Translations under genes and position numbers: made by a program
Notes under the pieces: model-generated
What the model was told of the DNA's origin: nothing
The model's input: the letters and a program-made list of their open reading frames with translations, nothing else
Database searches by the model: none
Shown: in pieces, positions 2,547 through 55,625 of the stretch
Position numbering within the stretch: the first letter of the stretch is position 1
Layout: the number at the start of each line of letters is the position of its first letter
From: an uncultured Bacilli bacterium
Lineage (GTDB): Bacteria > Bacillota_I > Bacilli_A > RF39 > UBA660
Direction of reading: 5' to 3'
Assembly (NCBI GenBank): GCA_934096605.1
Contig: CAKOMI010000001.1
Location: 11,776 to 75,775, forward strand
DNA length: 64,000 bases

Positions 2547-2680
2547 TTTATAAGAAAATACGCTGTTTGTGTAGATATAAAATAATACAATTACTATTCT
2601 TCTTTTATAGAGAAAGATTGATTAGTCTTTCTTTTTTCGTAGTTTCATGGTACTATTTTATAGTAGGAAAGAGGCTAAAT

Positions 2681-5600: not shown

Positions 5601-5794
5601 AAGGAGCAACCATGACACCTGGTGCCGCGTCTAATTATGCTACAAATGTTTATTCTATTAGTACTAGTGGTTATGCATATTCAGGCTATGCTTATTATAA
5701 ACACGCTATAAGTCCAGTAGTCTATTTAAAGACTAATGTTAAAGTTACTGGGGGAGATGGTTCAATAGACAATCCCTTTACTTTAGAAAATTGA
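2681..5794 (+). CDS. large secreted/surface protein, paralog A: N-terminal signal anchor, Ig-like repeats, conserved Cys-containing C-terminal domain
   Basis: An ATG with a GGAAAGAGG RBS is followed by K/R-rich residues and a hydrophobic segment. That segment ends SYAYFAA. Four to five repeats of about 95 aa carry D-x-T-A/G-P-x-I, SGL/I-x-GY and EWTS motifs. The last 380 aa or so are homologous to the C-termini of the ORFs at 27968, 29507 and 57095. The stop is TGA. Confidence 0.8.
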   Translation: MNRKRTLLIVIVFLLAVSVIGASYAYFAATTSNKGNDEITEITTEELGSIKWEGTKVYESGDSLPGEIGIQTFKVSKNSDNGKGIYEIDLEGIIDEAFNEDVLISLYKTTEPDKNYVKVTEGESTITGDDDTKMYYKEDKLQAVGTPELVYGPRALETKDPIILYQADFDNTNFPETTFYLVYEYLNKDNQDAEQGKSFSGTINVRLILEKIIGEESDIDITYTSNRNDYVNTDETLTITATSEKYNIARYSFDNIIYTPVDNPSKTVTITKTYTEEKDNIIYFKDDVGNTKSKTLDLFLDKTGPSITAKTTLEWDKTNTISITLEDEKSGLAGYALTETETDPSEWTSITGKSTTIAKDVTSNKKYYVYAKDVLGNISHKDVEVSHVDETAPVINEINEQENYGATSVISVSVKDNETGIVGYAFTTTNEEPTEWTSVDNVITEEKYTYEASSNGTIYFWVKDRVGNITSKPINVTKVDTTAPTITLSLSDELTWTSSKTLTMNFSDDESGLLGYKVTRDDSEPTEWLSITGFKITKTETIIGNGLYYIWVKDKAGLVTCVTKFVSYADSEKPVASMKLTSTSDSITIDASSSIDTESGIVSYEYSLDDIHYYYSMNPIYTFTDLAIGEYTVYLKVRDKTGNEGFSKMNVGVYQTFTNELKTLASTDTTNLMADDYENLRYVGDNPSNYVKIGDSTLGFDLYEFYYNGEKQGNELMYSEECNQLLSGYMDMMDYNATCELAHSYNEPILWRVIGVIKDVDDGNGNKSDRVKLIRQFPIGNYSWDTSLSAVNGGYGVNEWSLADIMKLLNPGYENNKDKERYNTEVTVNNSLFWNKESGLCFTYSNNTVGTSSDGGSMCDFKQNGLSDELKSMIDAAVWNTGAITNLSSLTSSFYEQERSTSNGKICTSGNYCNDTIGRTSSWTGKVGLMYPSDYGYAIGGSSRDKCLKSVTLDKWKSNNDCSNGNWLLNVSEEGATMTPGAASNYATNVYSISTSGYAYSGYAYYKHAISPVVYLKTNVKVTGGDGSIDNPFTLEN

Positions 5795-10360: not shown

Positions 10361-10385
10361 AAATTTGGAAATGAGGGATAAAGTT

Positions 10386-13295
10386 ATGCGAAATCCATTA
10401 AATGTTTGTACTGATTATTCTTTAATGCAAAGCTTAATAACTATCCCTAGACTTATGGATGCTCTATCTAAAACAAATTCCTATGTATGTGGGATATGCG
10501 ATGATAATTTATATGGGGCGATGGAATTTTTTTTAGCGTGTAAAAGTCATAATATCAAACCACTTATAGGCTTAAAGATAAAACTTAATGATACATACTT
10601 ATATTTATATCCTAAAAATAATATAGGGTATAAAAGACTCTTAAAAATTAATACTTTAAAAGAAGAAAACAATTTAGTATTAAGTGATATATTAAAGGAT
10701 TCTCATGAACTATTAATTGTTGTACCAGTACTTTTTATGAATGCTTATGAAGAGTTTGTTAATCTTGCTAATACATATGTTGCTTATACAAGTGAAATAG
10801 AAAAATACAAAGCTTTAGAGTTTACAAGTAGAGTTATATTTATGCCAGAAATTAATCTTTTTAATAGTAGTGATTCTAGTTATTTAAGACTTTTAAAAGC
10901 AATAGATAATAATACTTTATTTAAAAGTGTATTAGAAGAAGATAATAAGCATCATGCTTGGGATTTTTATACAACCAACACTGAGATAGAAGAAGAAATA
11001 AAGAGTTTTGCTTCCTTAATTGAACTTGATTTAAGTAGTAAAAAAAGATATATTCCAAGGTATGATGAAAGTATAGATTCTAATAAGTTTTTACAAACGT
11101 TAGCGCTTAAAGGACTTCAAAAAAGACTTAATGGTAAAGAAGTAAGTGCATATCAACAAAGACTTACATATGAACTTAATGTTATTGAAAGTATGGGCTT
11201 TAGTGACTACTTTTTAATCGTATATGACTATGTTTTATTTGCAAAGAAAAATGGCATTTTAGTAGGCCCAGGCCGTGGTAGTGCGGTTGGTAGTTTAGTT
11301 AGTTATTCCATTGGTATTACGGATGTTGACCCTTTAGAGTATAATTTGATTTTTGAAAGATTTTTAAATCCTTCTAGAGTAACGATGCCGGATATTGATA
11401 TAGATTTTGAAGAAACAAGAAGAGGCGAGGTTGTAGAGTACGTAAAAAAAAAATATGGTGAAAAAAATGTTTCTGGTATTATTACCTTTGGAACATTAAA
11501 AAGCAAACTTGTTTTAAGATGTGTATCTAAAGCCTTAGGCCTTGATACTGAGATGGATAAATTCATCAATATGTTTTCACCTAACTTATCTTTAAAGGAT
11601 AATTTAAAAGATGAAAGTATTAGAAATACCCTTAAAGAAAATGAATCATTTTTAGAAGTAGTTAAGTTATCCCTTAAATTAGAAGGTTTAAAAAAGCATA
11701 CATCTAGTCATGCTGCCGGTATTGTTATAGCAAGTGTACCATTAGATGAACTAATACCAGTCCATGTTGATGGAAGTGATTTACTTGCTGGTTTTACAAT
11801 GAATTATTTAGAAGATTTAGGCCTTTTAAAAATGGACTTTTTATCACTTCGTAATTTAACAACTGTAAAAAATATTCTTAGTCTTATAAAAAAAGACTTA
11901 GGCATAACTATTAATTTAAATAAAATACCTTTAGATGATAAAGATACTTATAAGGCTTTTTCACTTGGTAAAACAATGGGTGTTTTTCAATTTGAAAGTG
12001 AAGGCATGAAAAACTTTTTAAAAAAGTTAAAACCAGATAGATTTTCTCTTTTAGTCGCAGCTATTGCTCTATATAGACCAGGACCAATGGAAAATATTGA
12101 TGAATTTATTAGAAGAAAAGAAGGTAAAGTAAGTGTTACATATATCCATAAATCATTAGAGCCAATCTTAAAAGAAACATATGGTATTATTATCTATCAA
12201 GAACAAGTTATGCAAATACTTGTAAGTGTTGGGGGATTTTCTAATGCCGAATCAGATACCATAAGAAGAGCTATGAGTAAAAAGAAAAAAGAAATTATTA
12301 CTAGTTATGCAGAAAAATTTGTGTGTGGGGCTATAAACCAAGGGATAAGTGAAAATATTGCCAAAGAAATATACGCTTTAATACTAAAATTTGCCGGTTA
12401 TGGCTTTAATAAATCACACTCAGTATCTTATTCTTTACTAGGATATCAAATGGCTTATTTAAAAGTACATTACTTTTTATACTTTATTACAAATGCTTTG
12501 AATAACGTTTCTACTAATCCTTTAAAAACTAAAGAATATTTAGCTATGGCTAAACAAAATAAAATTAAAATATATCCGCCAGATATTAATTCAAGTACTG
12601 ATACTTATCAAATAGAAAATGGGGCTATTAGATTACCTCTTTCAGTAATAAAAGGCCTAGGAGCTATGGCAATTAAAGAAATAACAGAAGAAAGAAAGAA
12701 AAAACTTTTTACGGACTTTTTTGATTTTACTAGCAGGGTATATGGCAAAAGCGTTAATAGTAATACTTTAAAACTTTTAATTATATCTTCTGCATTTGAT
12801 ACATTTAAGGTTAATCATAAAACTCTACTTCAAGCTATTCCTGAGGCTATAAACTATGCCACTTTATCTAGTGGGATAGCTGAATCATTACTAGAAAAAC
12901 CAGATTTAATATATCAAGAGGATAGTACTGATAATGAGAAAAGAAATGAAGAAATGGAAGCATTTGGCTTTTATTTAAGTAATCATCCTGCTAGTAAGTA
13001 TATTAGTAAAGATATTTTGAAATTAGAAAATGTAAGTAACTATTTTCTTAAAAATGTGATATGTGTAGTTTTAATAGAAAATATAAGAGTTATTAAAACA
13101 AAAGACAATAAGGATATGGCTTTTCTTCGTGCCAGTGATGAGACTGGTGAATTAGAATTTGTTGTTTTTCCAAATACCATTAAGGAGTTAGAAAATATAA
13201 GTGTATCTTCACTAGCCTTAATAAGAGGTAAAGTATCAAAGCGATTTGATGCTTATCAAATAACAGTTAATAAAATAGAAAAAATACAAAATTAA
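10386..13295 (+). CDS. dnaE: DNA polymerase III alpha subunit, DnaE-type
   Basis: It has a PHP domain and the polymerase core (GRGSAVGSLVSYSIGITDVDPL, PDIDIDF). An ATG at 10386 with a GAGGG RBS is the preferred start. The ORF track instead opens at TTG 10365. Confidence 0.9.
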   Translation: MRNPLNVCTDYSLMQSLITIPRLMDALSKTNSYVCGICDDNLYGAMEFFLACKSHNIKPLIGLKIKLNDTYLYLYPKNNIGYKRLLKINTLKEENNLVLSDILKDSHELLIVVPVLFMNAYEEFVNLANTYVAYTSEIEKYKALEFTSRVIFMPEINLFNSSDSSYLRLLKAIDNNTLFKSVLEEDNKHHAWDFYTTNTEIEEEIKSFASLIELDLSSKKRYIPRYDESIDSNKFLQTLALKGLQKRLNGKEVSAYQQRLTYELNVIESMGFSDYFLIVYDYVLFAKKNGILVGPGRGSAVGSLVSYSIGITDVDPLEYNLIFERFLNPSRVTMPDIDIDFEETRRGEVVEYVKKKYGEKNVSGIITFGTLKSKLVLRCVSKALGLDTEMDKFINMFSPNLSLKDNLKDESIRNTLKENESFLEVVKLSLKLEGLKKHTSSHAAGIVIASVPLDELIPVHVDGSDLLAGFTMNYLEDLGLLKMDFLSLRNLTTVKNILSLIKKDLGITINLNKIPLDDKDTYKAFSLGKTMGVFQFESEGMKNFLKKLKPDRFSLLVAAIALYRPGPMENIDEFIRRKEGKVSVTYIHKSLEPILKETYGIIIYQEQVMQILVSVGGFSNAESDTIRRAMSKKKKEIITSYAEKFVCGAINQGISENIAKEIYALILKFAGYGFNKSHSVSYSLLGYQMAYLKVHYFLYFITNALNNVSTNPLKTKEYLAMAKQNKIKIYPPDINSSTDTYQIENGAIRLPLSVIKGLGAMAIKEITEERKKKLFTDFFDFTSRVYGKSVNSNTLKLLIISSAFDTFKVNHKTLLQAIPEAINYATLSSGIAESLLEKPDLIYQEDSTDNEKRNEEMEAFGFYLSNHPASKYISKDILKLENVSNYFLKNVICVVLIENIRVIKTKDNKDMAFLRASDETGELEFVVFPNTIKELENISVSSLALIRGKVSKRFDAYQITVNKIEKIQN

Positions 13296-13343: not shown

Positions 13344-16300
13344 GTGATTAAAGTGCAAAATGATGTGACAAGATTTTTAGATAGTATAAGTTATCCAAGT
13401 GAGCGTGAAGAACTTAAAAATATAGAAATAGAAAAAGTTTTATTGCACCGAAAAGATAGTTATTTTGAGGTTTACTTAAAAGGGGATGTACCACTGCCAT
13501 ATAATAAAGCCCGCGAATTACTTGCGTGTGCTAGTAATGGTATTCATGGAACAGAGAAGTGTTATGTTGTTTTTCATTATCAAGCTGTTCTTGATAGTGA
13601 TATCTCTTTATATATAGAAGGACTATTGAAAGATTTAATTATTAAAAAGCCATCTTTAAGTAGTGTTTTAGAAGTACCAGTCATAGTAAATGATGATATT
13701 ATAACGATTAATTGTTTTAATAAGATGATTTTAAATGAACTAAAAAAAGAAACGAAAGAATTACAAAAAAGTATGCTTATGTATGGTTTAAAAGAAGTGG
13801 AATTTAACTTAGTATTAAATGAAGAAATGATGGCCAGCATAAAAGAAGAAATAAAAAGTGCTAAAGAAGAGGTTAAAAAGATAGAAGAGCCCAAAAAAGT
13901 AGTCGGTGACATTATCCTTGGCAAAGAAATAACTGGTGAAGTAAGTGCCATTGCAAGTACTACTGGGGAACAAAAAGGTGTTGTCTTTGAGGCCTATATA
14001 TTTGGTATTGATACTTTAGAAAGAGATAATATAAATATTATTACATTAAAGATTAGTGATAAAACTAATTCTATTATTGCAAAGATCTTTAAAAAGGATA
14101 AAGCTGAATATAAAGCTGTTTTAACTAGTTTAAAGGTTGGTAATTGGTATAAGTTTTATGGTAATGTTGAATTTGATAATTTTTCTAAAGATTTTGTAAT
14201 GTCAGTTCGTTCTTTAATGAAAACTACTAGTAAAGATGAGGCTGTAGTAGATGAGGCAGAAACCCCAAGAGTTGAGCTTCACATGCATACGATGATGAGT
14301 GCGATGGACGGAGTAATACCAGCGGCTTCTTTAGTTAAAAAAGTAAGTGATATGGGAATGCATGCTTTGTGCGTTACAGATCATAACTGTGTTCAAGCAT
14401 TTCCTGAGTTATTTCATGCCGTAGAAGATTATAACAAGAAAAAAGAAGGGGCCGATCGCTTTAAAGTTTTATATGGGGCAGAGATGAACATTGTTAATGA
14501 TGACGTTGATATTGTTTTTAATCCCAAAACTTATAACTTACTAGAAGACACATTTGTTGTATTTGATACAGAGACAACTGGTTTTTATGCAGGTTCTGAT
14601 CAAATGATTGAAATTGGTGCGGTAAAGATTCAAAATGGTAAAATTTTGGATCGCTTTGATGAGTTAATTGACCCACATAGACCAATTCCTAAGAAGATTA
14701 CCGAACTTACTTTTATTACTGATGAAATGGTAAGGGGTTGTGATACCGAAGAAAATGTAACCAAAAGATTTTTAGAATGGGCTAGTGATAACCCAATGGT
14801 GGCCCATAACGCTAAGTTTGATATATCTTTTATGAAAGCTGCTTGTCAAAAATATGATTTAGGTGAATTTAACTATACAGTATTAGATACAATGAGTATT
14901 GCAAGAATGCTTCATCCTGAATGGCCTAATCATAAACTACAAACACTTACTAAAAAACTAGATGTCCCTTGGGATGAAGATAAACATCACCGGGCTGATT
15001 ATGATGCGGAAGGAACAGCTATTGCTTTTTATAAGATGAGTACATCTTTATCTAATCAAAGTATTAATACAACTGATGAACTTTTAGATAATATTGATAT
15101 GGAATCATTAGTTAGGTTTGCTTTTCCTTTTCACGCGACGATGATTGCCCAAAATAGAGAAGGCTTAAAAAATCTCTTTAAAATTGTGTCAATTGCTAAT
15201 ACGAAATATTTATATAAAAATGAACAGCCCAAAATACCAAGAAGAGACGTTTTAAAATTAAGGAGTGGTCTTTTAATTGGTTCTGGTTGTATTCATGGAG
15301 AAATTTTTGATAAAGCTGCGGGTAAAGAAGATGAAGAACTAGTTAATATGATGAGTTTTTATGATTATATTGAAGTTCAACCTATTAGTTCATTTGCCCA
15401 TTTGATAGGACCTGAGGCTAAGTTTTCTAATGTCTATGAAGCAGAAGAATATATAAAAAGAATTGTAAGAGTTGCTAAAGAAGCAGGAAAGCCCGTAGTG
15501 GCAACAGGAGACGTGCATAATTTTAGTAAAGATGATTTGATTTACCGAGAAATAATTATTAATCAAAAATTCAATGGTAAGTTACATCCTTTAAATAGAA
15601 GAGGCTTAAAAGTGCCTAATCAGTATTTTAAAACAACAAAAGAAATGCTTGATGATTTTAAATTCTTAGGTGAAGATGTGGCCTACGAAATTGTCGTTAC
15701 GAATACTAATAAAATTGCTAGTATGGTCGAAGAAATTGAGGTTATTATTGATACGGGTGGTATTCCTTTTGCACCAAAGATTGAAAATTCCCAAATGATT
15801 GTAACGGATATGGTTTATAAAAAAGCCCGTGAGTGGTATGGCGAACCGTTGCCATTCCACATTGAAGAGCGAATTGCCCTTGAGTTATACGGGGCACCTT
15901 TCATTGAAGCCGTTAAGAAAAATGCCGGTGAGGAAGATGCGGTGATTTATAAAAGACTACATGACGTAGTAACAAAAGGACCAGATGCGGTCCAAGAAGA
16001 AATTGCCCAAGCAATTTTGGTAGATGAACCGGAGAAAGATAAAGAAGAGGCTTTAAAAGAAGCTAAGGATAAAATGACTGCGATTATCGGAGCTAATTTC
16101 GACGTTATTTATCTTATTGCCCAAAAGTTAGTTAAACACTCTAATGATGAAGGGTTCTTAGTTGGTAGTCGTGGTTCGGTTGGTTCTTCTTTTGTAGCTA
16201 ACTTAATGGGTATCACTGAGGTTAATAGCCTAGCTCCACATTATCGTTGTCCTAAGTGTCAATTTAGTATTTTTGAGGGTGATGATGGCGAACCACTTGG

Positions 16301-17867
16301 TAATAACTATAAATGTGGTTTTGATTTGCCAGATAAAAAATGTCCTAAATGTGATACGCTTATGCATAAAGATGGTCATGATATACCATTTCAAACTTTC
16401 TTAGGTTTTAATGCTGATAAAGTACCAGATATTGATTTAAATTTTAGTGATTTAAACCAAGCAAGTGCGCATGAATATACCAAGGTATTGTTCGGTGTTG
16501 ATAATGTTTACCGGGCAGGAACAATCGGAACAGTTGCTGAGAAAACGGCTTATGGTTATGTTAAAGGCTATTGTGAAAATAAAAATATTATTATGCGTAG
16601 TATTGAGATTGAACGTCTTGCTATTGGTTGTACGGGTGTTAAAAGAACAACTGGTCAACATCCAGGTGGTATTGTTGTAATACCGGGCTATATGGAAGTC
16701 TATGATTTTACGCCATTTCAGTATCCCGCTGAAGACCCAACTAGTGCTTGGCGAACAACCCATTTTGATTACCATGCCATCGATCAAGACGTTTTGAAAC
16801 TAGATATTTTAGGTCATACCGATCCGACTCAGTTAAGAATGATTCAAGACTTAACGGGTGATGATATAACTAAAGTGCCACTTGACGATAAAGAAACAAT
16901 GAGTATTTTTACGAGTACTAAAGCTCTTGGTGTCACCAAAGAACAAATTATGTGTGATACAGGAACACTTGGCGTACCAGAGTTTGGAACACCATTCACC
17001 ATTCAACTTGTTAAAGATACAAAACCAACAACGTTTGCCGAGTTAGTAAAAATATCTGGTCTTGCCCATGGAACTGACGTATGGCTTGGTAATGCCCAAG
17101 AGTTAATTCAAAAGAATGTTGTCCCTTTTTCCAAAGTAATTGGTTGTCGTGATGACATTATGGTTGAGCTTATGTATGGTGGACTTGAACCTTTTAAGGC
17201 CTTCAAAATTATGGAATTTGTTCGTAAAGGAAAGGCTAGTAAAGACCCAGCTACTTGGGAAGGCTATGTCGAAACAATGAAAAAAGCAAATATTCCTGAT
17301 TGGTTTATTACATCTTGTCATAAAATAAAGTACATGTTCCCAAAAGCCCATGCTGCTGCCTATGTTACAAGTGCCTTTAGAATTGCTTGGTATAAAGTAC
17401 ATAAACCACTTGTTTATTATTGTACGTATTTTTCCACACGTTTCCAAGATTTTGATATTGATGCCATGTGTAGTGGTTATGATGCTATAAAGAAAAAAAT
17501 GATTGAATTACAAAGTAAAGGTTATGATATGACTAATAAAGAATCGTCTTTACTTGAAACTTTGAAATTAGCCTTAGAAGCTACTGCAAGAGGTGTATCA
17601 TTTAAAACAATCGATATTGAAAAAAGTGATGGTAATAATTTTGTGATGGATGAAAGTTCTAATAGTTTAATAATGCCATTTCGTAGTCTAGATGGTCTAG
17701 GGGATTCAGTTGCTACAAAGATTATTGAAGAACGTAACCAAAAGGCTTTTTATAGTATTGAAGATTTTGCTAGCCGTGGTAAAGTTAATCAAACAACTGT
17801 TGATAAAATGCGAACAATGGGTATTTTTGGTAGTATGCCAGAGACAAGTCAATTAAGTTTATTTTAA
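13344..17867 (+). CDS. polC: DNA polymerase III PolC-type
   Basis: The product is 1507 aa. It has the PHP motif (ELHMHTMMSAMDG), a 3'-5' exonuclease insertion (VVFDTETTGF) and a Zn-finger (CPKCQ...CPKCD). The start is ambiguous between GTG 13344, GTG 13353 and ATG 13359. Confidence 0.95.
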   Translation: MIKVQNDVTRFLDSISYPSEREELKNIEIEKVLLHRKDSYFEVYLKGDVPLPYNKARELLACASNGIHGTEKCYVVFHYQAVLDSDISLYIEGLLKDLIIKKPSLSSVLEVPVIVNDDIITINCFNKMILNELKKETKELQKSMLMYGLKEVEFNLVLNEEMMASIKEEIKSAKEEVKKIEEPKKVVGDIILGKEITGEVSAIASTTGEQKGVVFEAYIFGIDTLERDNINIITLKISDKTNSIIAKIFKKDKAEYKAVLTSLKVGNWYKFYGNVEFDNFSKDFVMSVRSLMKTTSKDEAVVDEAETPRVELHMHTMMSAMDGVIPAASLVKKVSDMGMHALCVTDHNCVQAFPELFHAVEDYNKKKEGADRFKVLYGAEMNIVNDDVDIVFNPKTYNLLEDTFVVFDTETTGFYAGSDQMIEIGAVKIQNGKILDRFDELIDPHRPIPKKITELTFITDEMVRGCDTEENVTKRFLEWASDNPMVAHNAKFDISFMKAACQKYDLGEFNYTVLDTMSIARMLHPEWPNHKLQTLTKKLDVPWDEDKHHRADYDAEGTAIAFYKMSTSLSNQSINTTDELLDNIDMESLVRFAFPFHATMIAQNREGLKNLFKIVSIANTKYLYKNEQPKIPRRDVLKLRSGLLIGSGCIHGEIFDKAAGKEDEELVNMMSFYDYIEVQPISSFAHLIGPEAKFSNVYEAEEYIKRIVRVAKEAGKPVVATGDVHNFSKDDLIYREIIINQKFNGKLHPLNRRGLKVPNQYFKTTKEMLDDFKFLGEDVAYEIVVTNTNKIASMVEEIEVIIDTGGIPFAPKIENSQMIVTDMVYKKAREWYGEPLPFHIEERIALELYGAPFIEAVKKNAGEEDAVIYKRLHDVVTKGPDAVQEEIAQAILVDEPEKDKEEALKEAKDKMTAIIGANFDVIYLIAQKLVKHSNDEGFLVGSRGSVGSSFVANLMGITEVNSLAPHYRCPKCQFSIFEGDDGEPLGNNYKCGFDLPDKKCPKCDTLMHKDGHDIPFQTFLGFNADKVPDIDLNFSDLNQASAHEYTKVLFGVDNVYRAGTIGTVAEKTAYGYVKGYCENKNIIMRSIEIERLAIGCTGVKRTTGQHPGGIVVIPGYMEVYDFTPFQYPAEDPTSAWRTTHFDYHAIDQDVLKLDILGHTDPTQLRMIQDLTGDDITKVPLDDKETMSIFTSTKALGVTKEQIMCDTGTLGVPEFGTPFTIQLVKDTKPTTFAELVKISGLAHGTDVWLGNAQELIQKNVVPFSKVIGCRDDIMVELMYGGLEPFKAFKIMEFVRKGKASKDPATWEGYVETMKKANIPDWFITSCHKIKYMFPKAHAAAYVTSAFRIAWYKVHKPLVYYCTYFSTRFQDFDIDAMCSGYDAIKKKMIELQSKGYDMTNKESSLLETLKLALEATARGVSFKTIDIEKSDGNNFVMDESSNSLIMPFRSLDGLGDSVATKIIEERNQKAFYSIEDFASRGKVNQTTVDKMRTMGIFGSMPETSQLSLF

Positions 17868-17937: not shown

Positions 17938-19197
17938 ATGATAAGGATGATGATTATGAAAGAATATATACCAAGAATTATAGATAAGACTTTGCAAGGA
18001 AAAATGAAAAATTATGGTGTTGTTATAATTGAAGGATGCCGATGGTGTGGTAAATCCTTTACTGCTAAACAACTAGCGGCTAGTTATATTGATTTAAAAG
18101 AGCTAGATATAAATTTAAGATATGAAAAACCAACATTATTATTAAAGGGAGATAAACCAAGGCTATTAGATAGCTTAGAAGTAAATTTTGATATTTGGGA
18201 GAATATTAAAAGAAATATTAATAGAACAGATAGTAAGGGACAATATATTTTAACGAGATCCATTAAGGAAAGTAATGATGATATTACAAGTAATGGTAGG
18301 GTTGTAAAACTTTTGATGCGACCAATGTCTTTGTATGAATCAAAAGAATCAAGTGGGACTGTTTCATTGCAAGATATTATTGATGGCAAGGAAATAAAAG
18401 GTGTTTCTACACTTAGTTTTGATGGATTAACAAATGCGATGATGCGTGGTGGCTGGCCAAAAACTTTAGATTGTTCTTTTGATAATGCATATGGGTTAGC
18501 TAAAGAATATGTTAATAGTGTTTTAAAGGAAGGTATTAAATATGTAGATAATACGGATGATTGTCAATTTTTAATGCAAGTAGTTTTAGAAAATATAGCT
18601 AAAAATAGTTTTAAAATGGTTAGTGAACCAGAACTTCTGGAAGAGGTAAACAATAAATATTTTAAAAATATAACCAGAAAAACTTTGGATAGTTATTTAA
18701 AAGTTTTAGAAAGACTTTATATTTTAGAGTATGTACCAGCAACAAGTATAAGTATGCGAACTAAAACACCTCTTTATATACTTCCTAAATTAGTGTTAGT
18801 AGATCCATCTATTGGGGTAGCTTTATTAGATTTAAAAAAAGAGGATTTAGTAAGGAATGCAAAATTTACCAAGGCTATGTTTGAAAATCTTTGTATAAGA
18901 GATTTAAAAATATATGCTGAATCTTTAGGGGTAAAACTAGCGTATTACTTAGATACAAAAGCCAAGGAGACTGCCTTTATTTTGACAATGCCTGATGGTA
19001 AGTGGGGGTTAGTTACAATAGAACTTGACCCTTTAAAGCTTTCTAGAACTATAGAAAGATTACTTCTATTTAAAGAAAATGTTGATAGTTACAAGTATGG
19101 AAACCCCGCGTTTTTAATGGCTTTAACTGGTGATAATAAATCTTACAAGCGTGATGATGGCGTTTATGTAGTGGCAATTAGTGCTTTAAAAAATTAA
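17938..19197 (+). CDS. AAA+ ATPase of the DUF4143 family (second copy)
   Basis: It has a Walker A motif EGCRWCGKSF and the same architecture as the gene at 1341. Confidence 0.65.
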   Translation: MIRMMIMKEYIPRIIDKTLQGKMKNYGVVIIEGCRWCGKSFTAKQLAASYIDLKELDINLRYEKPTLLLKGDKPRLLDSLEVNFDIWENIKRNINRTDSKGQYILTRSIKESNDDITSNGRVVKLLMRPMSLYESKESSGTVSLQDIIDGKEIKGVSTLSFDGLTNAMMRGGWPKTLDCSFDNAYGLAKEYVNSVLKEGIKYVDNTDDCQFLMQVVLENIAKNSFKMVSEPELLEEVNNKYFKNITRKTLDSYLKVLERLYILEYVPATSISMRTKTPLYILPKLVLVDPSIGVALLDLKKEDLVRNAKFTKAMFENLCIRDLKIYAESLGVKLAYYLDTKAKETAFILTMPDGKWGLVTIELDPLKLSRTIERLLLFKENVDSYKYGNPAFLMALTGDNKSYKRDDGVYVVAISALKN

Positions 19198-21778: not shown

Positions 21779-21807
21779 TATATAATTTAATGGGTTAGGT
21801 GGTTTTG

Positions 21808-23445
21808 ATGAAAGAAAAATTAAATAAACATTATGTAATGGTGATAGGGATATTATTAGTGTCATTGTTATTTTGTATACCATTATTTATTAATCCTTAT
21901 CATGTTAATAACGATACACTTTTTCATGTTAGTAATGTAAGTGTTATAGTAGAGGCTATAAAAACTAATTTTTTAAATGGTATTATTATGCGAATTATGC
22001 CTAATATAGCTAATAACTTTGGTTATGGGACAAGGCTTTTTTATCCGCCTTTAACACATACATTGACGGCGTATTTAGCATATGGATTAAGCTTTTTTAA
22101 TGTATCAGTAATAGACACGATGAAAGTTATGCATTTGTTAGTTTTATTTTTAAGCGGTTTAAGTATGTATTTTTGTGCGTATAGATTTTCACATAATAAA
22201 TTACTTAGTTTTATATCTTCTTTGATTTATATGGGTAGTAGTTATCATATTGATGAAATATATGTAAGAGATAGTGAAGCAGAAGCTTTATTGTTTGTAT
22301 TCTTGCCACTTATAATCACGGCGGTTAAAGAACTACTAGAAGGCAATAAAAAACTATTTTATCCTTTATTTATAATTGGGTATGTTGGTGGTATACTATC
22401 ACATTTTACAATGATGATATATTTTACTTTAATACTAGGCGCTTGTATGTTGTTCTTTTATAAAAAAGTGTTTAGAAAAGAATTTTTAATACCATTTATT
22501 AAAGCATCGATTTTAGTTTTATTGTTAACTTTATTTTTCTTTGAACCTTTATTTGAACATAAGCTATTTGGTAATTACCGAGTTTATCAAAAATGGGTTA
22601 TGTCTTTAGGGATTCAACATACGGCTCTTTGGGGATTTGAATATTTCATTCCTTTTGATAAAAGTGAAATATATTTTTATTTAAGTATAATAACAATTGT
22701 TTTGTTAGTAGCATTCTTTAAATATTATCGTAAGGATTTGAAAGATGAAAAAGTTAAATTAGTATTCATTTTTACATGCTTTAGTTTATGGCTTTCAACG
22801 GTATATTTTCCCTGGATTATTATGCCTTATACAATGTTTATGATTCAATTTGGGTGGCGTCTTGTGGCCTTAGTTATTTTAGGGGTATCTTTTATAGCAC
22901 CTATGGCTTTAAAGGAATCTAAAAGTAAGATTATTTACGGAGTAGTTATTTTAGGTCTTATTATATCTGGTTTTACGGCAATTCATTTTGCTAGTGATGA
23001 TATAGTGGATATTAATTCTTTAAATTATGTTTACGGTATGGGCTGGCAAAGAGAGTATTTGCCTGTTGATATGGAAACTAATTTAGATTATTACAATAAT
23101 AGAGGACAAGACGTAGTGGTAACAGAAGGAAAAGGTAGCGTTGAAACTACTTTAAATAATGTACCTGATTTAGAGTTTAAAGTTACTAGTGATGATAGTG
23201 TAACGATTGAAATGCCAAGAATATTTTACTTTGGTTATGAGTTAACTCGTGAAGATGGAGAAGTAATACCTTTGTTTTCCAATGGCAATGGCTTTTTAGC
23301 TAGTCACGTTACAAGTGGTAGTTATAAATTAAAATATAAGGGTACCATTACATACAGAATATGTATATATATTTCACTTACAACATTAGGGGTATTACTT
23401 CTTTATGTATTAGTTAAAGTAATTAAGATAAAAATTTTAAAATAA
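21808..23445 (+). CDS. large polytopic membrane protein, possible glycosyltransferase or YfhO-like
   Basis: It has at least 10 TM helices and a C-terminal extracytoplasmic domain. An ATG at 21808 follows a GGTGG RBS. Function is not resolved. Confidence 0.4.
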   Translation: MKEKLNKHYVMVIGILLVSLLFCIPLFINPYHVNNDTLFHVSNVSVIVEAIKTNFLNGIIMRIMPNIANNFGYGTRLFYPPLTHTLTAYLAYGLSFFNVSVIDTMKVMHLLVLFLSGLSMYFCAYRFSHNKLLSFISSLIYMGSSYHIDEIYVRDSEAEALLFVFLPLIITAVKELLEGNKKLFYPLFIIGYVGGILSHFTMMIYFTLILGACMLFFYKKVFRKEFLIPFIKASILVLLLTLFFFEPLFEHKLFGNYRVYQKWVMSLGIQHTALWGFEYFIPFDKSEIYFYLSIITIVLLVAFFKYYRKDLKDEKVKLVFIFTCFSLWLSTVYFPWIIMPYTMFMIQFGWRLVALVILGVSFIAPMALKESKSKIIYGVVILGLIISGFTAIHFASDDIVDINSLNYVYGMGWQREYLPVDMETNLDYYNNRGQDVVVTEGKGSVETTLNNVPDLEFKVTSDDSVTIEMPRIFYFGYELTREDGEVIPLFSNGNGFLASHVTSGSYKLKYKGTITYRICIYISLTTLGVLLLYVLVKVIKIKILK

Positions 23446-27731: not shown

Positions 27732-27858
27732 TTAAGATAAATTTTTTAAAAAAATGTATATAGTAAGTATTTTATTTGTTTTTTGTTTATGCTAAAATTA
27801 AAGTATATTAAAGTAGAAAAGGAGGATGGTTAGCACAAGAATGTGTTAATTAAAGATT

Positions 27859-27897
27859 ATGAGATTAATTAAAAATAGGTTGGGGGGGGGGTTCTAG
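27859..27897 (+). CDS. upstream uORF MRLIKNRLGGGF* terminating just after the G10 tract
   Basis: The ATG at 27859 reads through the G-run as GGG x3 and stops at TAG 27895-97. With G9 it would fuse to the main ORF. Confidence 0.4.
   Translation: MRLIKNRLGGGF
27882..27891 (+). repeat. G10 homopolymer, a putative slipped-strand phase-variation tract
   Basis: Ten consecutive G residues in a genome of roughly 28% GC. They lie between the upstream ATG and the paralog B ORF. Confidence 0.85.
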
Positions 27898-27967
27898 TAA
27901 TAAGGATAAGATAGAACTTCAGGTATTTAGAGAACCTAATAAAAAAAGAAAAATTATATTAATAACT

Positions 27968-29287
27968 GTGTTATTTAGTATGTTAGCATTATCTTGTATG
28001 TACTTATATAAAACATATGCGGTGTTTACAGAAGAGAAACACTTTAATGTAATCAATGGAACTGTTCAAGATCCAGGAGATATTTATTTTGCATATTATG
28101 TAGATAATACAATAACAAGGGAAATGCCTAAGAAAGGAACAGGCTATACATTAGATATCGAAAAAAGCAATTGTACAAATGGAGTAACAGTAGGTTGGAA
28201 TCAAGATAAGTGGACAGCTCTAGTTAACTATGAAAACTATAATGCCACTGATTATACAAGAACAAAATGTAATTTGTATTTTAAACAAGTAACATATTGC
28301 GATTTGCATTCCGAGACAATGGCTTGTCAAATAACAAAGTTGGCAACAACAGAAACTACAAGCTTAGCCATAGATGACTATGGCAATACAAGATATATAG
28401 GAGCAGATCCAAACAACTATGTAAGCGTAGATGGTGATATATGGCGTATCATCGGTGTTATGAAGGACATAGATGATGGTACAGGTAATAAAAGTGACAG
28501 GGTAAAATTAATAAGAGCTGATTCAATAGGTGATTATTCATGGGACACAAGTGAAAGTTCTGTAAACGAAGGATATGGAGTAAACGAATGGAGCCAAGCA
28601 GATTTAATGAAATTATTAAATCCTGGCTATGAAAGCGTGACAGTAGGTGGCTCATTATACTGGAATAATGGAACAGGCACATGCTATAATAACAGAGCTA
28701 ATGTAGCTGCTAGTTGTAATTTCACAAGTATGGGTATCAGAGAAAAATTAAAAACACTAATAAGTGATGTCGTATGGAACACAGGCAGTCAAGGAACAAA
28801 TAATTATCAAAGCACTGGTGGAGGATTAGTAAAACATTTCTATACCTATGAAAGAGGTAATAATACTGGCAAAATTTGTTCAAGCGGCAACTATTGCAAT
28901 GACTTTGTGACAAGAACAACGACATGGACAGGAAAAGTTGGCTTAATGTATCCAAGCGACTATGGCTATGCCACAAGTGGAGAAAGTATAACAAACCGAG
29001 CAACATGTCTGAATACATATTTAAATAACTGGGGTAGCAGTAGTGTAAGTGACTGCAAAAATGGTGATTGGCTATTTAATAGTAGCAGTTCCCAATGGAC
29101 ATTATCGTCAGGTGCTTACTCTTCTGTTGCTGACTTTGTGTTCTTTGTGCATAGTAGTGGAATTATCAATTTTGATTATGCATATGACACTAATGCAGTT
29201 CGTCCTGTTGTTTACCTTTTGTCATCAGTAAAAATAGTATCGGGTGATGGTTCTTCTTCAAATCCATATGTCTTATCTGGCAGCTAG
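27968..29287 (+). CDS. surface protein paralog B with the conserved C-terminal domain; the 5' end may extend to ATG 27859 after a -1 G slip
   Basis: The ORF-track ORF opens at GTG 27968. Upstream in frame, and free of stops back to TAA 27866, lies ...GGSSNKDKIELQVFREPNKKRKIILITV. The C-terminal 320 aa are homologous to the other three paralogs (WRIIGVMKDIDDGTGNKSDRVKLIR, GVNEWSQADLMKLLNPGYE, ICSSGNYCND, TWTGKVGLMYPSDYGYA, VRPVVYL...SGDGSSSNPY). Confidence 0.8.
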   Translation: MLFSMLALSCMYLYKTYAVFTEEKHFNVINGTVQDPGDIYFAYYVDNTITREMPKKGTGYTLDIEKSNCTNGVTVGWNQDKWTALVNYENYNATDYTRTKCNLYFKQVTYCDLHSETMACQITKLATTETTSLAIDDYGNTRYIGADPNNYVSVDGDIWRIIGVMKDIDDGTGNKSDRVKLIRADSIGDYSWDTSESSVNEGYGVNEWSQADLMKLLNPGYESVTVGGSLYWNNGTGTCYNNRANVAASCNFTSMGIREKLKTLISDVVWNTGSQGTNNYQSTGGGLVKHFYTYERGNNTGKICSSGNYCNDFVTRTTTWTGKVGLMYPSDYGYATSGESITNRATCLNTYLNNWGSSSVSDCKNGDWLFNSSSSQWTLSSGAYSSVADFVFFVHSSGIINFDYAYDTNAVRPVVYLLSSVKIVSGDGSSSNPYVLSGS

Positions 29288-29397
29288 TTAAAAAAATAAA
29301 TACATATTTTATTGTTTTAAAAGTTATGTTAAAATACGAAATATAAATAAAGTAGAAAAGGAGGATAGTTAGCACGTGAATGTGTTAATTAAAGATT

Positions 29398-29436
29398 ATG
29401 AGATTAATTAAAAATAGGTTGGGGGGGGGGTTCTAA
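29398..29436 (+). CDS. upstream uORF MRLIKNRLGGGF* (second copy)
   Basis: The ATG at 29398 reads through the G10 tract and stops at TAA 29434-36. Confidence 0.4.
   Translation: MRLIKNRLGGGF
29421..29430 (+). repeat. G10 homopolymer, second putative phase-variation tract
   Basis: Ten consecutive G residues, in the same context as 27882-27891. Confidence 0.85.
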
Positions 29437-29506
29437 TAATAGAGGCGAGATAGAACTTCAGGCTTTTAGAGAACCTAATAAAAAAAGAAAAATTATATTA
29501 GCAACT

Positions 29507-30805
29507 ATGTTGTTTAGTATGTTAGTATTATCTTGTATGTACTTATATAAAACATATGCCGTGTTTACAGAAGAAAAACACTTTAATGTGATAAATGGTG
29601 AGGTGCAAGATCCAGGAGATATCTATTTTGCTTATTATGCAGATAATACAATAACAAGGAGTATGCCTAAGAAAGGAACAGGCTATACTTTAGATACCGA
29701 AAAAAGTAATTGTACTAATGGAGTCATACCAAAATGGGATAATGGCGGTTGGCAATTTATAGGTGATTATAGTGATTATAATGCAACAGATTACACCAGA
29801 ACCAGATGCAATTTGTATTTTAAAAAAATAGATATAACGGCTGTTGATTATATTAAAGAGTTGGCTAAATACGATACAGAAACACTTGCTACAGATGAAG
29901 CTGGAGGTAATGTTAGGTATATAGGAAAATCTCCTGATAATTATGTAAATATTGATGGCGATATATGGCGTATCATTGGCGTTATGAAAGATATAGATGA
30001 TGGTACAGGAAAAAAGAGTGACAGAGTAAAATTAATAAGATCTTCTTCAATAGGAAAATATTCATGGGATAGTAGTGATTCAAAAGTTAATTATGGCAAG
30101 GGTGTTAATGAATGGAGTCAGGCCGATTTAATGAAACTTTTAAATCCTGGGTATGAAAGTGAGTCAGTAGGAGGCTCATTATATTGGAATGGCAAGTCGG
30201 GTACATGTTATAGTGATCAAAAAAATATTACAACAAGTTGTGATTTTACAAGTACAGGCATAAAAGATAAGTTGAAAAGATTAATAGGTAATGTTAATTG
30301 GGGGCTTGGGTCTGTTGATGGAGTAACTTATACATTTGCTAATATTTCTACCATTAAGTCATATGAATTTGAACAAAGTACTAATACGGGTAAAATTTGC
30401 GATGGGACGTATCAAGGAGGTATATACTGTACAGACACAGTAATAAGAACAACAACCTGGACCGGAAAAGTAGGCTTAATGTATCCTTCTGATTATGGTT
30501 ATGCGACAAGTGGTGGTAGTACAATTGATAGAGCAAAATGTTTAAAAGCTGCGATGCATTCTTGGAACAACGATTTGAATTTTTGCTATGAAAATAACTG
30601 GTTATCATGTGGCATTGATGAATTTACTTTAACTCCATCTCCTAGACCTGAATTTGATTATGATATTTTTTCTATTCATAATAAGGTTATTGATAGTTAT
30701 AGTGCGAATGCCTACATAAATGTTCGCCCTGTAGTATATTTAAAACCATCTGTATCTATTCAAAGCGGAGATGGCTCAGAAAATAGTCCTTTTATACTAG
30801 AATAA
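29507..30805 (+). CDS. surface protein paralog C with the conserved C-terminal domain; the 5' end may extend to ATG 29398 after a -1 G slip
   Basis: It has the same architecture as paralog B. The first 70 or so aa are nearly identical to B. The middle region is divergent. The C-terminal domain is conserved. Confidence 0.8.
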   Translation: MLFSMLVLSCMYLYKTYAVFTEEKHFNVINGEVQDPGDIYFAYYADNTITRSMPKKGTGYTLDTEKSNCTNGVIPKWDNGGWQFIGDYSDYNATDYTRTRCNLYFKKIDITAVDYIKELAKYDTETLATDEAGGNVRYIGKSPDNYVNIDGDIWRIIGVMKDIDDGTGKKSDRVKLIRSSSIGKYSWDSSDSKVNYGKGVNEWSQADLMKLLNPGYESESVGGSLYWNGKSGTCYSDQKNITTSCDFTSTGIKDKLKRLIGNVNWGLGSVDGVTYTFANISTIKSYEFEQSTNTGKICDGTYQGGIYCTDTVIRTTTWTGKVGLMYPSDYGYATSGGSTIDRAKCLKAAMHSWNNDLNFCYENNWLSCGIDEFTLTPSPRPEFDYDIFSIHNKVIDSYSANAYINVRPVVYLKPSVSIQSGDGSENSPFILE

Positions 30806-30845: not shown

Positions 30846-30885
30846 AAAGCCTAATAAATACTGCAGCTTATTAGGCTTTATTAAA
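30846..30885 (+). terminator. rho-independent terminator after the paralog pair
   Basis: AAAGCCTAATAA pairs with TTATTAGGCTTT and a weak T/A run follows. Confidence 0.5.
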
Positions 30886-30906: not shown

Positions 30907-31455
30907 ATGAATAAAAAAGGTTTTGTGTTTATTGAAACTATAATAGTTATATCAATACTTTTAGCATCTTTGATGATTGTGTATTCTTTATATGTTTCAT
31001 CTATTAATAAAGAAAATAAAAGATTAAGATATGATGATCCAGTTAAATTATATCAAACGTTTTATATGAAACAATATTTAAATAGTTTTCGTCTTAATGA
31101 ATTAGAGAAAAATATTACTAATGAAAATCCATATATTAATATATATGGACAAAGTGATTTATTTGGTGGATCTTTTAGTAATGAAAAAAAGTTTTTTGAA
31201 AGAATTACAGATGAACTTAATATTGAAACAATTTTACTTACTACTTACGATGTGTCTTTATTAACTGATTGCAAAGAAAATAGAAATATGCTTTGTACTA
31301 ATAATAATTTAATCGAGTACTTAAATACTTTAGATAATGATGGAAAAAGTGGCTATAGGTTAATTATTGAGTATAAAGAACAGTTGAATGGTAAGAAATG
31401 TGAAAATAAAAAAGATTGTTATTCTTTCTATTCAAATGTATGGGTAGGTGATTAA
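30907..31455 (+). CDS. type IV prepilin-like protein (pilin or pseudopilin)
   Basis: The N-terminus MNKKG|FVFIETIIVISILLASLMIVY is a class III signal with G|F and Glu at +5. The C-terminal part has paired cysteines. Confidence 0.75.
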   Translation: MNKKGFVFIETIIVISILLASLMIVYSLYVSSINKENKRLRYDDPVKLYQTFYMKQYLNSFRLNELEKNITNENPYINIYGQSDLFGGSFSNEKKFFERITDELNIETILLTTYDVSLLTDCKENRNMLCTNNNLIEYLNTLDNDGKSGYRLIIEYKEQLNGKKCENKKDCYSFYSNVWVGD

Positions 31456-32060
31456 TGATGAAAAGTAAGGGATTTACATTAGTAGAAATTATTGTAAGTG
31501 TAGCACTTATTTCTATTGTGTTACTTTTATTATTCCAATTAATGACTGATATGGAGTATGATTCTTTAACTTCTATGTTTGCTAGTGATAATCAGGTGAA
31601 TAGAGCGACTATCATAAAAAGAATTGACAAGGATTTAATGGATTATGGTCTTAAAAGTATACCTAGTATTAACAATATTACTAATGGTAAACAAATTAAG
31701 CTTAGTTTTAGTAATGGTAGTAGTAAAGATATTATTGTAACTTCTAGTACACTTACATATGATGGGGAAAGTTATACAGTTTCTTCTGGTGGTTCTTATG
31801 ATATTAATAATATAAAGATTGTATCTATACCTAGTAATTCAGAGAAACTTTGTTCTTATATGTTAAATATTGATACAAATAACGATGGTGTATGTGATGC
31901 GAACTGTGGAACTAATGAGAGTAATATGACGAAGAAAAATGATAATTATGTATATTGTCCTATTTATCAAGCTATAAAAATAGTTATACCTGTTTTGTTT
32001 AGTGAAGATGATGTGGCACTTGATGATATAGAAATATTTTATATTGGAAAATTAAGTTAG
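31455..32060 (+). CDS. type IV prepilin-like protein (pilin or pseudopilin)
   Basis: The N-terminus MMKSKG|FTLVEIIVSVALISIVLLLLFQLM is a canonical prepilin signal. Cysteines are present in the C-terminal region. Confidence 0.75.
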   Translation: MMKSKGFTLVEIIVSVALISIVLLLLFQLMTDMEYDSLTSMFASDNQVNRATIIKRIDKDLMDYGLKSIPSINNITNGKQIKLSFSNGSSKDIIVTSSTLTYDGESYTVSSGGSYDINNIKIVSIPSNSEKLCSYMLNIDTNNDGVCDANCGTNESNMTKKNDNYVYCPIYQAIKIVIPVLFSEDDVALDDIEIFYIGKLS

Positions 32061-32128
32061 ATTATAGCTTAATTTTTTTCTTTTACTTTTAAACAAATGT
32101 ATGTTATTATGTTGGTGGTGATTTAAAA

Positions 32129-54027: not shown

Positions 54028-55302
54028 ATGTTTGTTGATGAAGTAAAAATGGAACTTTATGCTGGTCGTGGTGGCGATGGCTGTACGTCTTTTAGACGAG
54101 AAAAATATATTCCGATGGGGGGGCCTGATGGTGGTTCTGGTGGTAAAGGGGGCGACATTATTTTTGTAGCATCTAAAGATTTAAAGACCTTAGTTGATTT
54201 AAAGTATCACCGAATTATGAAAGCCGATAAAGGAATGAATGGTAAAGGAAAAAATAGAAAAGGAAAAGATGCTGATAATATTGTAGTTAAAGTACCACTT
54301 GGCACAACTGTTATAGATGATGATACAGGACTTGTGATGGCTGATTTGACGCATGATAAAGAAGAGTTAGTTGTGGCAGAAGGTGGACGCGGAGGCCGTG
54401 GTAACGTAGCTTTTGCAACACATGAAAAACCAGCACCAGAGTTTTCAGAGCTTGGTGAACCTGGAGAGGTTAGATATATTAAATGTGAATTAAAAGTGTT
54501 AGCAGATGTGGGATTAGTCGGAATGCCAAGTGTTGGCAAAAGTTCTATTTTGGCGGCTGTTTCTAGTGCGACGCCTAAAATTGCGGCCTATCATTTTACA
54601 ACTTTAACGCCTAACTTAGGGGTAGTAAATCTTAAAAATGGTCAAAAATTTGTTCTAGCTGATTTACCAGGAATGATTGAAGGAGCTAGTGAAGGTGTTG
54701 GTCTTGGTGATCGCTTTTTAAAACATGCCAAAAGAACAAGAATTTTAGCTCATGTTCTTGATATGGCTGGTAGTGAGGGAAGAGATCCGATAGATGACTA
54801 TGAAATTATTAGAAAAGAAATAGTTAATTATAATGATGATTTAGCTAATAAGTTAGAAATAGTTGTAGCCAATAAAATGGATATGCCAGACTTTAAAGAA
54901 AATTTAGAAAGATTTAAAGCTAAATATCCGGATAAACAAGTATATGCTGTAAGTGCAATAAATAATGAAGGCTTAGATGAATTAATGAATGGGCTTAGTG
55001 CTTCTTTAGAAAAAATTGAAAGTACAGATTTATATACAGAAGAAGATTATGAAAGTACCATTGTTTATAAATTTAAAAATGAAAAACCATATACAATTAC
55101 AAAAGAGAATGGTATATGGGTATTAAGAGGAAAAGAAATTGAAAAATTATTTGCTATGACAAGATTTACAGAACAAGAAGGAGTTATGCGTTTTGCAAGA
55201 AAATTAAAAGGTATGGGCGTTGAGGATGAGTTAGAACGACTTGGAGCAAAACGAGGCGATGAGGTCCAAATTTTAGATTATATTTTTGAATTTAAAGATT
55301 AG
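54028..55302 (+). CDS. obg: GTPase Obg
   Basis: It has the Gly-rich N-terminal domain (GGPDGGSGGKGGD) and the G1 motif GMPSVGKSS. A C-terminal OCT domain is present. Confidence 0.95.
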   Translation: MFVDEVKMELYAGRGGDGCTSFRREKYIPMGGPDGGSGGKGGDIIFVASKDLKTLVDLKYHRIMKADKGMNGKGKNRKGKDADNIVVKVPLGTTVIDDDTGLVMADLTHDKEELVVAEGGRGGRGNVAFATHEKPAPEFSELGEPGEVRYIKCELKVLADVGLVGMPSVGKSSILAAVSSATPKIAAYHFTTLTPNLGVVNLKNGQKFVLADLPGMIEGASEGVGLGDRFLKHAKRTRILAHVLDMAGSEGRDPIDDYEIIRKEIVNYNDDLANKLEIVVANKMDMPDFKENLERFKAKYPDKQVYAVSAINNEGLDELMNGLSASLEKIESTDLYTEEDYESTIVYKFKNEKPYTITKENGIWVLRGKEIEKLFAMTRFTEQEGVMRFARKLKGMGVEDELERLGAKRGDEVQILDYIFEFKD

Positions 55303-55625
55303 TCTTTAAACTTTAAAACTGAACCAACATGTAAAGAGGTACCAACATTTTTAGGTAACTCTAGAATGCTGGTTTTTTTTGAGTCATCACTTACTTTGAC
55401 AATTTTGTTTTTAGGAACGTCTAAATAAATAAAGATAACTTGATTGTCTTTATTTAGACCAAATACATTAATATTTTCTTTCATAAAAAAGGTATGAATC
55501 GCGTTACAATTGGGAAAAAGAATTCCTTTTTGAATATTTTTTTGGCCCATAAGGCCTAGTAGTCTTGTTTTAAAATCTTTGGCAATAGTAATTTCAATAT
55601 TTTTATTATTTAATTTTAATGTCAT
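55299..55625 (-). CDS. DUF192 domain protein
   Basis: It has the DUF192 signature LLGLMG...HTFFM. Length is 108 aa. Confidence 0.55.
   Translation of the reverse strand: MTLKLNNKNIEITIAKDFKTRLLGLMGQKNIQKGILFPNCNAIHTFFMKENINVFGLNKDNQVIFIYLDVPKNKIVKVSDDSKKTSILELPKNVGTSLHVGSVLKFKD

Follow-up and report, generated by a model that had tools for sequence, protein, structure and literature searches.

Very few models, Streptococcus sanguinis foremost, have shown how type IV filaments of Gram-positive bacteria present adhesins. In this species the type IV pilus tip complex PilA-PilB-PilC combines a small minor pilin with modular pilins that carry lectin and von Willebrand A modules (PMC9934059; PMC8179133). 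In the Kil pilus of Myxococcus, interchangeable Tad tip clusters that are unlinked to the machine provide alternative specificities (PMC12075869). PilY1, the large adhesin of double-membrane type IVa pili, has been described as absent from single-membrane bacteria. Here we report on a 64-kb stretch of DNA from an uncultured Bacilli bacterium (contig CAKOMI010000001.1; the whole stretch is called the window below), in which two adjacent prepilin genes, pilin A and pilin B, directly follow a tandem pair of genes for large surface proteins with a predicted lectin-like fold. We consider it probable (about 0.6) that A and B are minor tip pilins, that the large paralogs are detached, phase-variable versions of an adhesin module that relatives of pilin A carry, and that the cassette as a whole serves as an adhesion module.

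The two pilin genes are located as follows, with the slash marking the cleavage site of the leader:

30907-31455, + strand, pilin A, a 182-aa prepilin (MNKKG/FVFIET) of a lineage-specific minor-pilin family
31455 or 31458 to 32060, + strand, pilin B, 201 or 200 aa (M(M)KSKG/FTLVEI), the constant partner of pilin A

A and B bear all sequence hallmarks of type IV pilins. The class III signals with Glu at +5 noted in a preliminary description of this DNA were found in both open reading frames (ORFs), which exist as described there, with Gly at -1 and Phe at +1 and with about 20 hydrophobic residues after the Glu; a six-frame scan showed that these are the only two prepilin motifs in the whole 64 kb. 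The same description's Cys pairs in the C-terminal halves were likewise confirmed, with four Cys counted in that half of pilin A and four in that of pilin B, and the distance to ruvA, given there as within 70 bp, was measured as 68 nt from the end of pilin B to the ruvA start. Pilin B exceeded the curated cut-off of Pfam N_methyl (PF07963; 29.0 against 21.2 bits, E 7e-7) and also that of TIGR02532 (23.3 against 16.3 bits). Pilin A scored slightly below the TIGR02532 cut-off (14.2 against 16.3 bits) and had no match in the Pfam search, but G5, F6 and E10 are invariant in a 57-sequence alignment of its family, in which C122 and C130 are at least 90% conserved. C150 of pilin B is invariant in the five sequences available. 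The resemblance between A and B is confined to the first ~72 residues, and the stop codon of A and the start codon of B share one nucleotide (TAATG). In the AlphaFold2 model of pilin A (predicted local distance difference test, pLDDT, 88), a 38-residue N-terminal helix (residues 3-40) is followed by a small alpha/beta head with four strands, a predicted lollipop fold. Profile searches of solved structures with A and B returned N-terminal pilin matches only.

A word-indexed search recovered 90 relatives of pilin A and 5 of pilin B, all of which came from metagenomes or metagenome-assembled genomes labelled 'uncultured Bacilli', and in an exhaustive HMMER profile search of 1.84 billion cluster representatives 121 clusters matched pilin A at E<=1e-30, a number that rose to 581 at E<=1e-10. 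The two genes were found adjacent in ~17 lineages with varied flanks, and at unsaturated distances the ratio of nonsynonymous to synonymous substitution rates (dN/dS) was 0.12-0.28 for pilin A and 0.15-0.29 for pilin B, indicating purifying selection on both. The window has a GC content of 28.9% and contains signs of a spore-forming Firmicute (spoVA genes, both polC and dnaE, and the order mraZ-rsmH-ftsL-pbp2b). As a conserved pair of neighbours, A and B are thus confined to one lineage of uncultured, low-GC, spore-forming gut Bacilli.

The large proteins next to the pair belong to a family with four members in the window:

27859-29287, + strand, large paralog 1, a lectin-like surface protein and member of the family profile A3
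29398-30805, + strand, large paralog 2, with a run of ten G (G10) at 29421-29430 that puts it out of frame here
57095-58912, + strand, third paralog, 605 aa (profile A3, E 3e-158), with no poly-G tract
2567-5794, + strand, fourth paralog, 1075 aa (profile A3, E 3e-114), which has a PKD/OmpL47-type domain and shares the lectin-like module at its C-terminus

The family, of which more than 6,700 members are detectable, contains no Pfam domain, and a profile search of solved structures gave no sequence-level match. The AlphaFold2 model of paralog 2 (pLDDT 83) consists of an N-terminal helix of 29 residues, a small beta domain and a large alpha/beta domain. With this model, the sole significant solved-structure match in Foldseek was the IgA peptidase of Thomasclavelia ramosa (E 1.4e-5, probability 1.00, 331 aligned columns, with a TM-score of only 0.30). 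Since ~330 columns align and the paralog has no HExxH motif, the modelled match most likely falls on the N-terminal domain of the peptidase, which its depositors described as enlarged C-type-lectin-like and dispensable for catalysis (PMC12237041). The N-terminal helix of the paralogs was matched to that of pilin A by hhalign with 48% probability (P 2e-4; the reversed-sequence control gave 0.1), a result that is no more than suggestive of descent of the paralog helix from a pilin. A '...TYAVFTEE' motif had raised the question of a SipW/TasA-type signal on the paralogs, and this candidate was dropped after an NCBIfam search gave no match. The N-terminus of the fourth paralog reads 'GASYAYFAATT'.

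In each of the two copies beside the pilins a G10 tract lies 23 nt downstream of an ATG (27859 and 29398), and with G10 the reading frame that starts there ends after 12 codons. The tract of paralog 1 (27882-27891) throws the ATG at 27859 out of frame; a G9 allele would yield a 475-aa protein that includes a charged leader and a membrane helix. Paralog 2 with G9 would likewise have a charged leader and a membrane helix in a protein of 468 aa, and this allele exists in another assembly (P0039, 100% identical). Beyond the window end, immediately after relA-dtd, there are two further poly-G copies (L039 12653-16129 and 16233-17603), one with G9 in frame and one with G10 out of frame, so that at least six paralog copies are spread over ~80 kb. 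Upstream of the pilins the tandem copy number is one in L008 and two in the window, L005-7 and L009, and 11 of 11 tracts across these six assemblies of the window species (window, L005-9) are G10. The uniform G10 prompted the idea of a programmed frameshift or a fixed regulatory element, which is disfavoured by the alleles of relatives: G8 in frame, G9 in frame, G9 with an extra T out of frame and G10 out of frame were all found, as was an interrupted allele, GGGGGAGGG. A homopolymer in the 5' coding region therefore varies in length between strains and sets the frame, and phase variation of the paralogs by slipped-strand mispairing at poly-G is favoured because in-frame G9 and G8 and interrupted alleles exist. 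The regions upstream of the tandem paralogs (27770-27967 and 29310-29506) are near-identical repeats that include a small hairpin (UAGUUAGCAC...GUGUUAAUUA) and, ~35 nt 5' of the start ATG, a strong AAGGAGGA, and translation initiation of these two genes looks unusual.

The link between the pilins and the paralogs is drawn from three independent lines, namely a shared neighbourhood with changing flanks, pilin-headed homologues of the paralogs, and gene fusions, the last of which we take as decisive. As for the neighbourhood, one or more paralogs precede A and B in the window species, L010/L023-25 and L038, and the order in L014 is A, B, paralog. In distant relatives (L017, L020, L029 and L033) the gene of a 300-412-aa protein flanks A and B or separates them; the pilin-type N-terminus of this protein (MNKKGFIS..VVY) has no Glu5. 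The C-terminal part of this pilin-headed protein is homologous to the paralogs (hhalign probability 95%, E 4e-8); hmmsearch matched the two in both directions (1e-5 to 1e-4), and the motifs WRI(I/V), CND and RPV..LK..V...G.G...P are common to both. As for fusions, ~22 of the 150 top pilin A representatives (~15%) are modular proteins of 440-1304 aa, and in 9 of these ~22 the paralog module lies C-terminal to the pilin A domain. In P0301, pilin A occupies residues 2-197 and the paralog module residues 176-517 (E 6e-72); P0267 (2e-49) and P0348 (3e-39) show the same arrangement, and six more do so with weaker scores.

The remaining cargo of pilin A relatives comprises a glycine-rich domain, DUF285 leucine-rich repeats or Listeria-Bacteroides repeats. 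Pilin A is the scaffold on which this lineage generally builds its modular pilins, and, by analogy with the argument made for S. sanguinis PilB/PilC, a pilin that tolerates bulky cargo would be expected to sit at the filament tip. The pilin A of the window is bare (182 aa) and does not join pilin and module in one polypeptide; the window cassette would therefore act like a split version of a modular pilin and is not itself a member of that class. Two kinds of unusual pilins were also seen among these loci. An ALK/LTK-type glycine-rich domain is fused to a pilin A homologue, the listed examples, other cargo included, being L001 8019-9764, P0268, P0278, P0293 and P0357. Giant canonical pilins of 714-845 aa with GFT[LI][TV]E are encoded by distant relatives, within their A/B cluster or close to it (L029 4371-6908, L017 5396-7768 and L035 13665-15809); those of L029 and L017 match Ig-like, Listeria-Bacteroides-repeat or OmpL47-type domains and that of L035 has no Pfam match.

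The genomic context in relatives points to a candidate machine for these pilins. As close lineages we counted the seven in which pilin A identity to the window protein reaches at least 46%. In five of them the pair lies directly 3' of a complete flp-tadE-tadF-tadZ-tadA-tadB-tadC operon in the same orientation, with pilin A after tadC. The arrangements are:

L010-12 and L023-25: tad, one or two paralogs, A, B
L014: tad, A (beginning 20 nt 3' of tadC), B, with a poly-G paralog just 3' of B
L028: tad, a 549-aa protein of no assigned family, A, B
L037: tad, A, B
L038: tad, a 506-aa paralog, A, B, ruvA, fic, ruvB

The order in L038 is that of the window with tad in place of pbp2b. No tad genes were found near the pair in the window species or in the L026/L004 lineage, and in ~10 more distant lineages the pair lies in a conserved core of a spoVID-like gene, a ysxE-like gene, the pilins, a ylbJ-like gene on the opposite strand, and ylbL. 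Because L038 has the window arrangement plus tad and five of seven close lineages are tad-linked, the tad-unlinked state of the window looks derived within the clade. The leaders of the Tad pilins, read in the two loci L010 and L014 (Flp MNKRG, TadE M(K)NKKG, TadF MDKKG), also resemble the A/B leader MNKKG. From the position of the cassette at the 3' end of the tad operon and from these leaders, a Tad/Flp system is the most likely candidate for the assembly of A and B.

Another explanation is that the window species lost its tad operon and that A and B are orphan relics, no longer assembled into any filament. The window arrangement is that of L038 minus tad, and no machinery turned up in the ~84 kb examined, as this explanation would have it, although that span is only part of the genome. 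However, more than 100 metagenomic contigs bear intact copies of both genes with the exact sequences, comparisons inside the window species gave dN = 0 for pilin A at dS 0.02-0.03 and a dN/dS of 0.23 for pilin B, and the overlapping stop and start that couple translation of A and B are preserved. We regard this relic explanation as very unlikely.

The preliminary description had also stated that no pilus machinery is linked to the pilins, and it had proposed locating the prepilin peptidase and the remaining pilus genes. For the immediate neighbours the statement stands; it fails for the window at large, which contains an assembly ATPase beside another paralog, and for the close lineages, in five of seven of which the cassette is directly 3' of a tad operon. 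Pfam scans of all window ORFs of at least 90 aa, together with the search of the flanks, revealed no T2SSF, Peptidase_A24 or PilMNO gene in the 64 kb or in the 10 kb past each end, so that an ATPase was found and a peptidase and a platform protein were not. The genes concerned are:

55708-56994, - strand, 428-aa assembly ATPase for type IV filaments, of the PilB/GspE class, with a Walker A motif and a CxxC...CxxC zinc motif
55299-55625, - strand, DUF192 gene, directly after the ATPase gene

The ATPase scored 1e-127 with Pfam T2SSE and 5e-150, 7e-145 and 3e-80 with NCBIfam GspE, PilB and ComGA, respectively, all three of the latter under their equivalog cut-offs. It lies 24 kb downstream of the pilins and is a candidate motor with no linked platform or peptidase gene. 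The ATPase gene is divergent from the third paralog (57095-58912), and the same arrangement was found in another strain.

This ATPase is central to a rival explanation, in which A and B are minor pilins of a PilB/GspE-type filament (type IVa-like or Com-like) and their position after tad in relatives reflects a shared insertion site or shared regulation. The N-methyl-type signature of A and B and the position of the ATPase beside a paralog favour it as the motor; the signature is the canonical GFxxxE/N_methyl one, the best named matches, albeit weak, are ComGE, ComGF and GspH/I, and the ATPase carries a zinc motif. Among distant relatives, the giant pilins in the cluster are ComGC-like and have no tad nearby. 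In L010, Mob_Pre and resolvase genes (1-2900) precede the tad locus upstream of the cassette, which suggests that this tad island may be mobile, and the tad locus of an Erysipelotrichales genome has been called horizontally acquired (PMC12786226). Nevertheless, the window ATPase has no PilC/ComGB or PilD partner within ~30 kb, all ComG equivalog cut-offs were missed widely, and in five of seven close lineages the pair directly follows tadC with operon-like spacing. Assembly by a PilB/GspE-type machine in place of Tad is, on balance, unlikely.

One further element lies within the block:

30846-30885, + strand, AU-rich hairpin of 12-16 bp between paralog 2 and pilin A

This hairpin (z-score, z = -2.9) recurs in a single sister species with z = -5.7 and -6.1 and is thus conserved. 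The element lacks a U-tract and was not called by the terminator scan, and on these two grounds a canonical terminator between the paralogs and the pilins was ruled out. The single terminator proposed earlier for this position thus gave way to a conserved hairpin, which is more likely an attenuator or RNA-stability element because the U-tract is missing; for the same reason the operon structure of the block is not established. In the gap between pilin B and ruvA (32061-32128) no hairpin or terminator-like element was detected (z = +0.7), and the pilins and ruvAB may be co-transcribed.

Considering these results, we propose a plausible model for the cassette. A prepilin peptidase would cut A and B after the leader Gly, and their N-terminal helices would bring them into the subcomplex that primes a type IV filament or forms its tip. 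The cassette of the window would then be a split modular-pilin tip adhesin in which A and B are bare pilin adaptors, and the paralogs, as detached copies of the module with a membrane helix and a poly-G on/off switch of their own, would supply a swappable, phase-variable binding head. They may dock on A and B at the pilus tip, or they may serve the same adhesion pathway from the cell surface; display on the pilus is what we infer. The assembly machine would be encoded elsewhere in the genome, with Tad/Flp as the top candidate and the PilB/GspE-class ATPase as the alternative. A more specific version, in which the very large poly-G lectin-like family supplies interchangeable heads that dock non-covalently on A and B at the filament tip, be it of a Tad or another type IV system, is speculative and distinctly unlikely as it stands. 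If it were true, on/off switching of each head would generate combinatorial variation of pilus-tip adhesion and antigenicity in gut Bacilli. To our knowledge, interchangeable phase-variable heads on pilin adaptors have not been described as a mechanism for Gram-positive pili.

Several observations weigh against the tip-adhesin model. No Tad gene, platform protein or prepilin peptidase was found in the 64-kb window and its 10-kb flanks, and a functional assembly machine in the window genome is therefore presumed. The ~10 more distant lineages have no tad, T2SSE or T2SSF gene within reach of the pair. A and B are of the GFxxxE/N-methyl class and are not TadE-like, and neither matches the TadE domain PF07811, which the true TadE of L010 and L037 does match. 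A methyltransferase domain is normally missing from Tad peptidases. The head of pilin A had no structural match among solved pilins or other solved structures. The paralogs lack the class III signal and cannot undergo pilin processing; having neither Gly -1 nor Glu5, they are not ordinary pilins. The pair also occurs without paralogs (L014 on the upstream side, L026 and L037) and paralogs without pilins (L013, and in the window at 2567 and 57095), so the association is frequent, not obligatory. The view that the paralog-paralog-pilin-pilin order is a functional module, taken earlier from the window alone, thus received comparative support from the recurrence of the cassette between different flanks, from the pilin-headed homologues and from the fusions, but it does not extend to a fixed unit, as the pair and the paralogs can each stand alone. 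A fusion elsewhere implies a functional link and is not proof of a physical complex here. Finally, the tandem copies beside the pilins are out of frame (G10) in six of the six assemblies examined.

The last points lead to a further rival, in which the adjacency is a historical leftover, the paralogs have become, since the module split from the pilin, autonomous membrane-anchored phase-variable adhesins that use no pilus any more, and A and B have an unrelated filament role such as priming. The paralogs have a membrane helix, a promoter and ribosome-binding region and a poly-G switch of their own, most of the copies lie far from the pilins, and L013 has four tandem copies beside glycan-synthesis genes with no pilins; the silence of the pilin-adjacent copies in all checked assemblies, with the pilins still under selection, would also be explained. 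Such a leftover agrees less well with the repeated occurrence of paralogs and pair together in several arrangements (upstream, downstream and between), with the multiple fusions of pilin A and module, or with the third paralog adjoining the ATPase gene. We consider this rival somewhat unlikely, and retain the split modular-pilin tip adhesin as the preferred reading.

Other genes of the window attracted attention in their own right. Two AAA_14/DUF4143 ATPase genes are present, at 1341-2546 (directly 5' of the 1075-aa paralog) and at 17938-19197 (after polC). A conserved 548-aa multi-pass membrane protein with no Pfam or NCBIfam match is encoded at 21799-23445, between efp and mraZ. The genes dnaE (10365-13295) and polC (13344-17867) lie on the same strand only 48 nt apart, an unusual pairing of replicative polymerase genes.

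Compared with the systems described so far, the cassette resembles several in part. ComGE and ComGF are the best named profile matches of A and B and also come from Firmicute hosts. However, pilin A reached only 25.3 bits against the ComGE cut-off of 49, with similarity over residues 2-78 only, and pilin B 20.7 bits against the ComGF cut-off of 80, with similarity over residues 4-76 only; both proteins are larger than their ComG counterparts and lie outside any comG operon. A comGA or comGB gene adjoins the pilins in none of ~17 related loci, the neighbours in the window being the lectin-like paralogs and ruvAB. ComG membership was accordingly ruled out by scores far under the cut-offs and the lack of comG context. 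With PilY1/PilC of double-membrane type IVa pili the cassette shares a large non-pilin adhesin beside minor-pilin genes, which in those pili is presented at the tip; PilY1, however, has no homology to the window paralogs, which retain an N-terminal membrane helix.

The Tad minor pilins TadE, TadF and TadG and the Myxococcus tips are approached through the position of the pair at the 3' end of flp-tadEFZABC in five of seven close lineages, and the Kil tip clusters also in that tip pilins are encoded away from the machine. In contrast to Tad minor pilins, A and B combine the lack of a PF07811 match with a GFxxxE/N-methyl signature, and the window genome has no tad within reach. With the poly-G phase-variable genes of Campylobacter and Neisseria the paralogs share an early coding poly-G tract whose strain-variable length sets the frame, whereas here the host is a Gram-positive of 29% GC and the family, with its more than 6,700 members, is tied evolutionarily to a pilin module. 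Among the compared systems and the literature surveyed, we found no counterpart to the split of pilin and module, to poly-G switching of such a module in a low-GC Gram-positive, or to GFxxxE-type pilins appended to tad operons. The linkage of GFxxxE-type pilins with Tad operons is one outcome of this study, and another is that a large unannotated phase-variable surface-protein family is flagged in abundant uncultured Bacilli of the human and animal gut.

The closest comparison is that with PilA-PilB-PilC of S. sanguinis. Both systems belong to single-membrane Gram-positive bacteria, both combine small minor pilins with pilins whose bulky modules fit at the tip only, and a lectin-like module occurs in S. 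sanguinis and, as predicted by modelling, in the window system; relatives of the window pilin A are true modular pilins. The window system differs in that the module comes from genes of its own, which add a membrane helix and a poly-G switch, in that its predicted fold is enlarged C-type-lectin-like and not concanavalin-like, in that no sequence similarity extends past the N-terminal helix, and in that the genes lie outside any pil locus. A single lineage offers a natural before/after series, in which the module is fused to the pilin, bears its own pilin-like signal, or is detached with a phase-variable switch, and this series makes testable the hand-over of a non-pilin membrane-helix protein to a minor-pilin adaptor.

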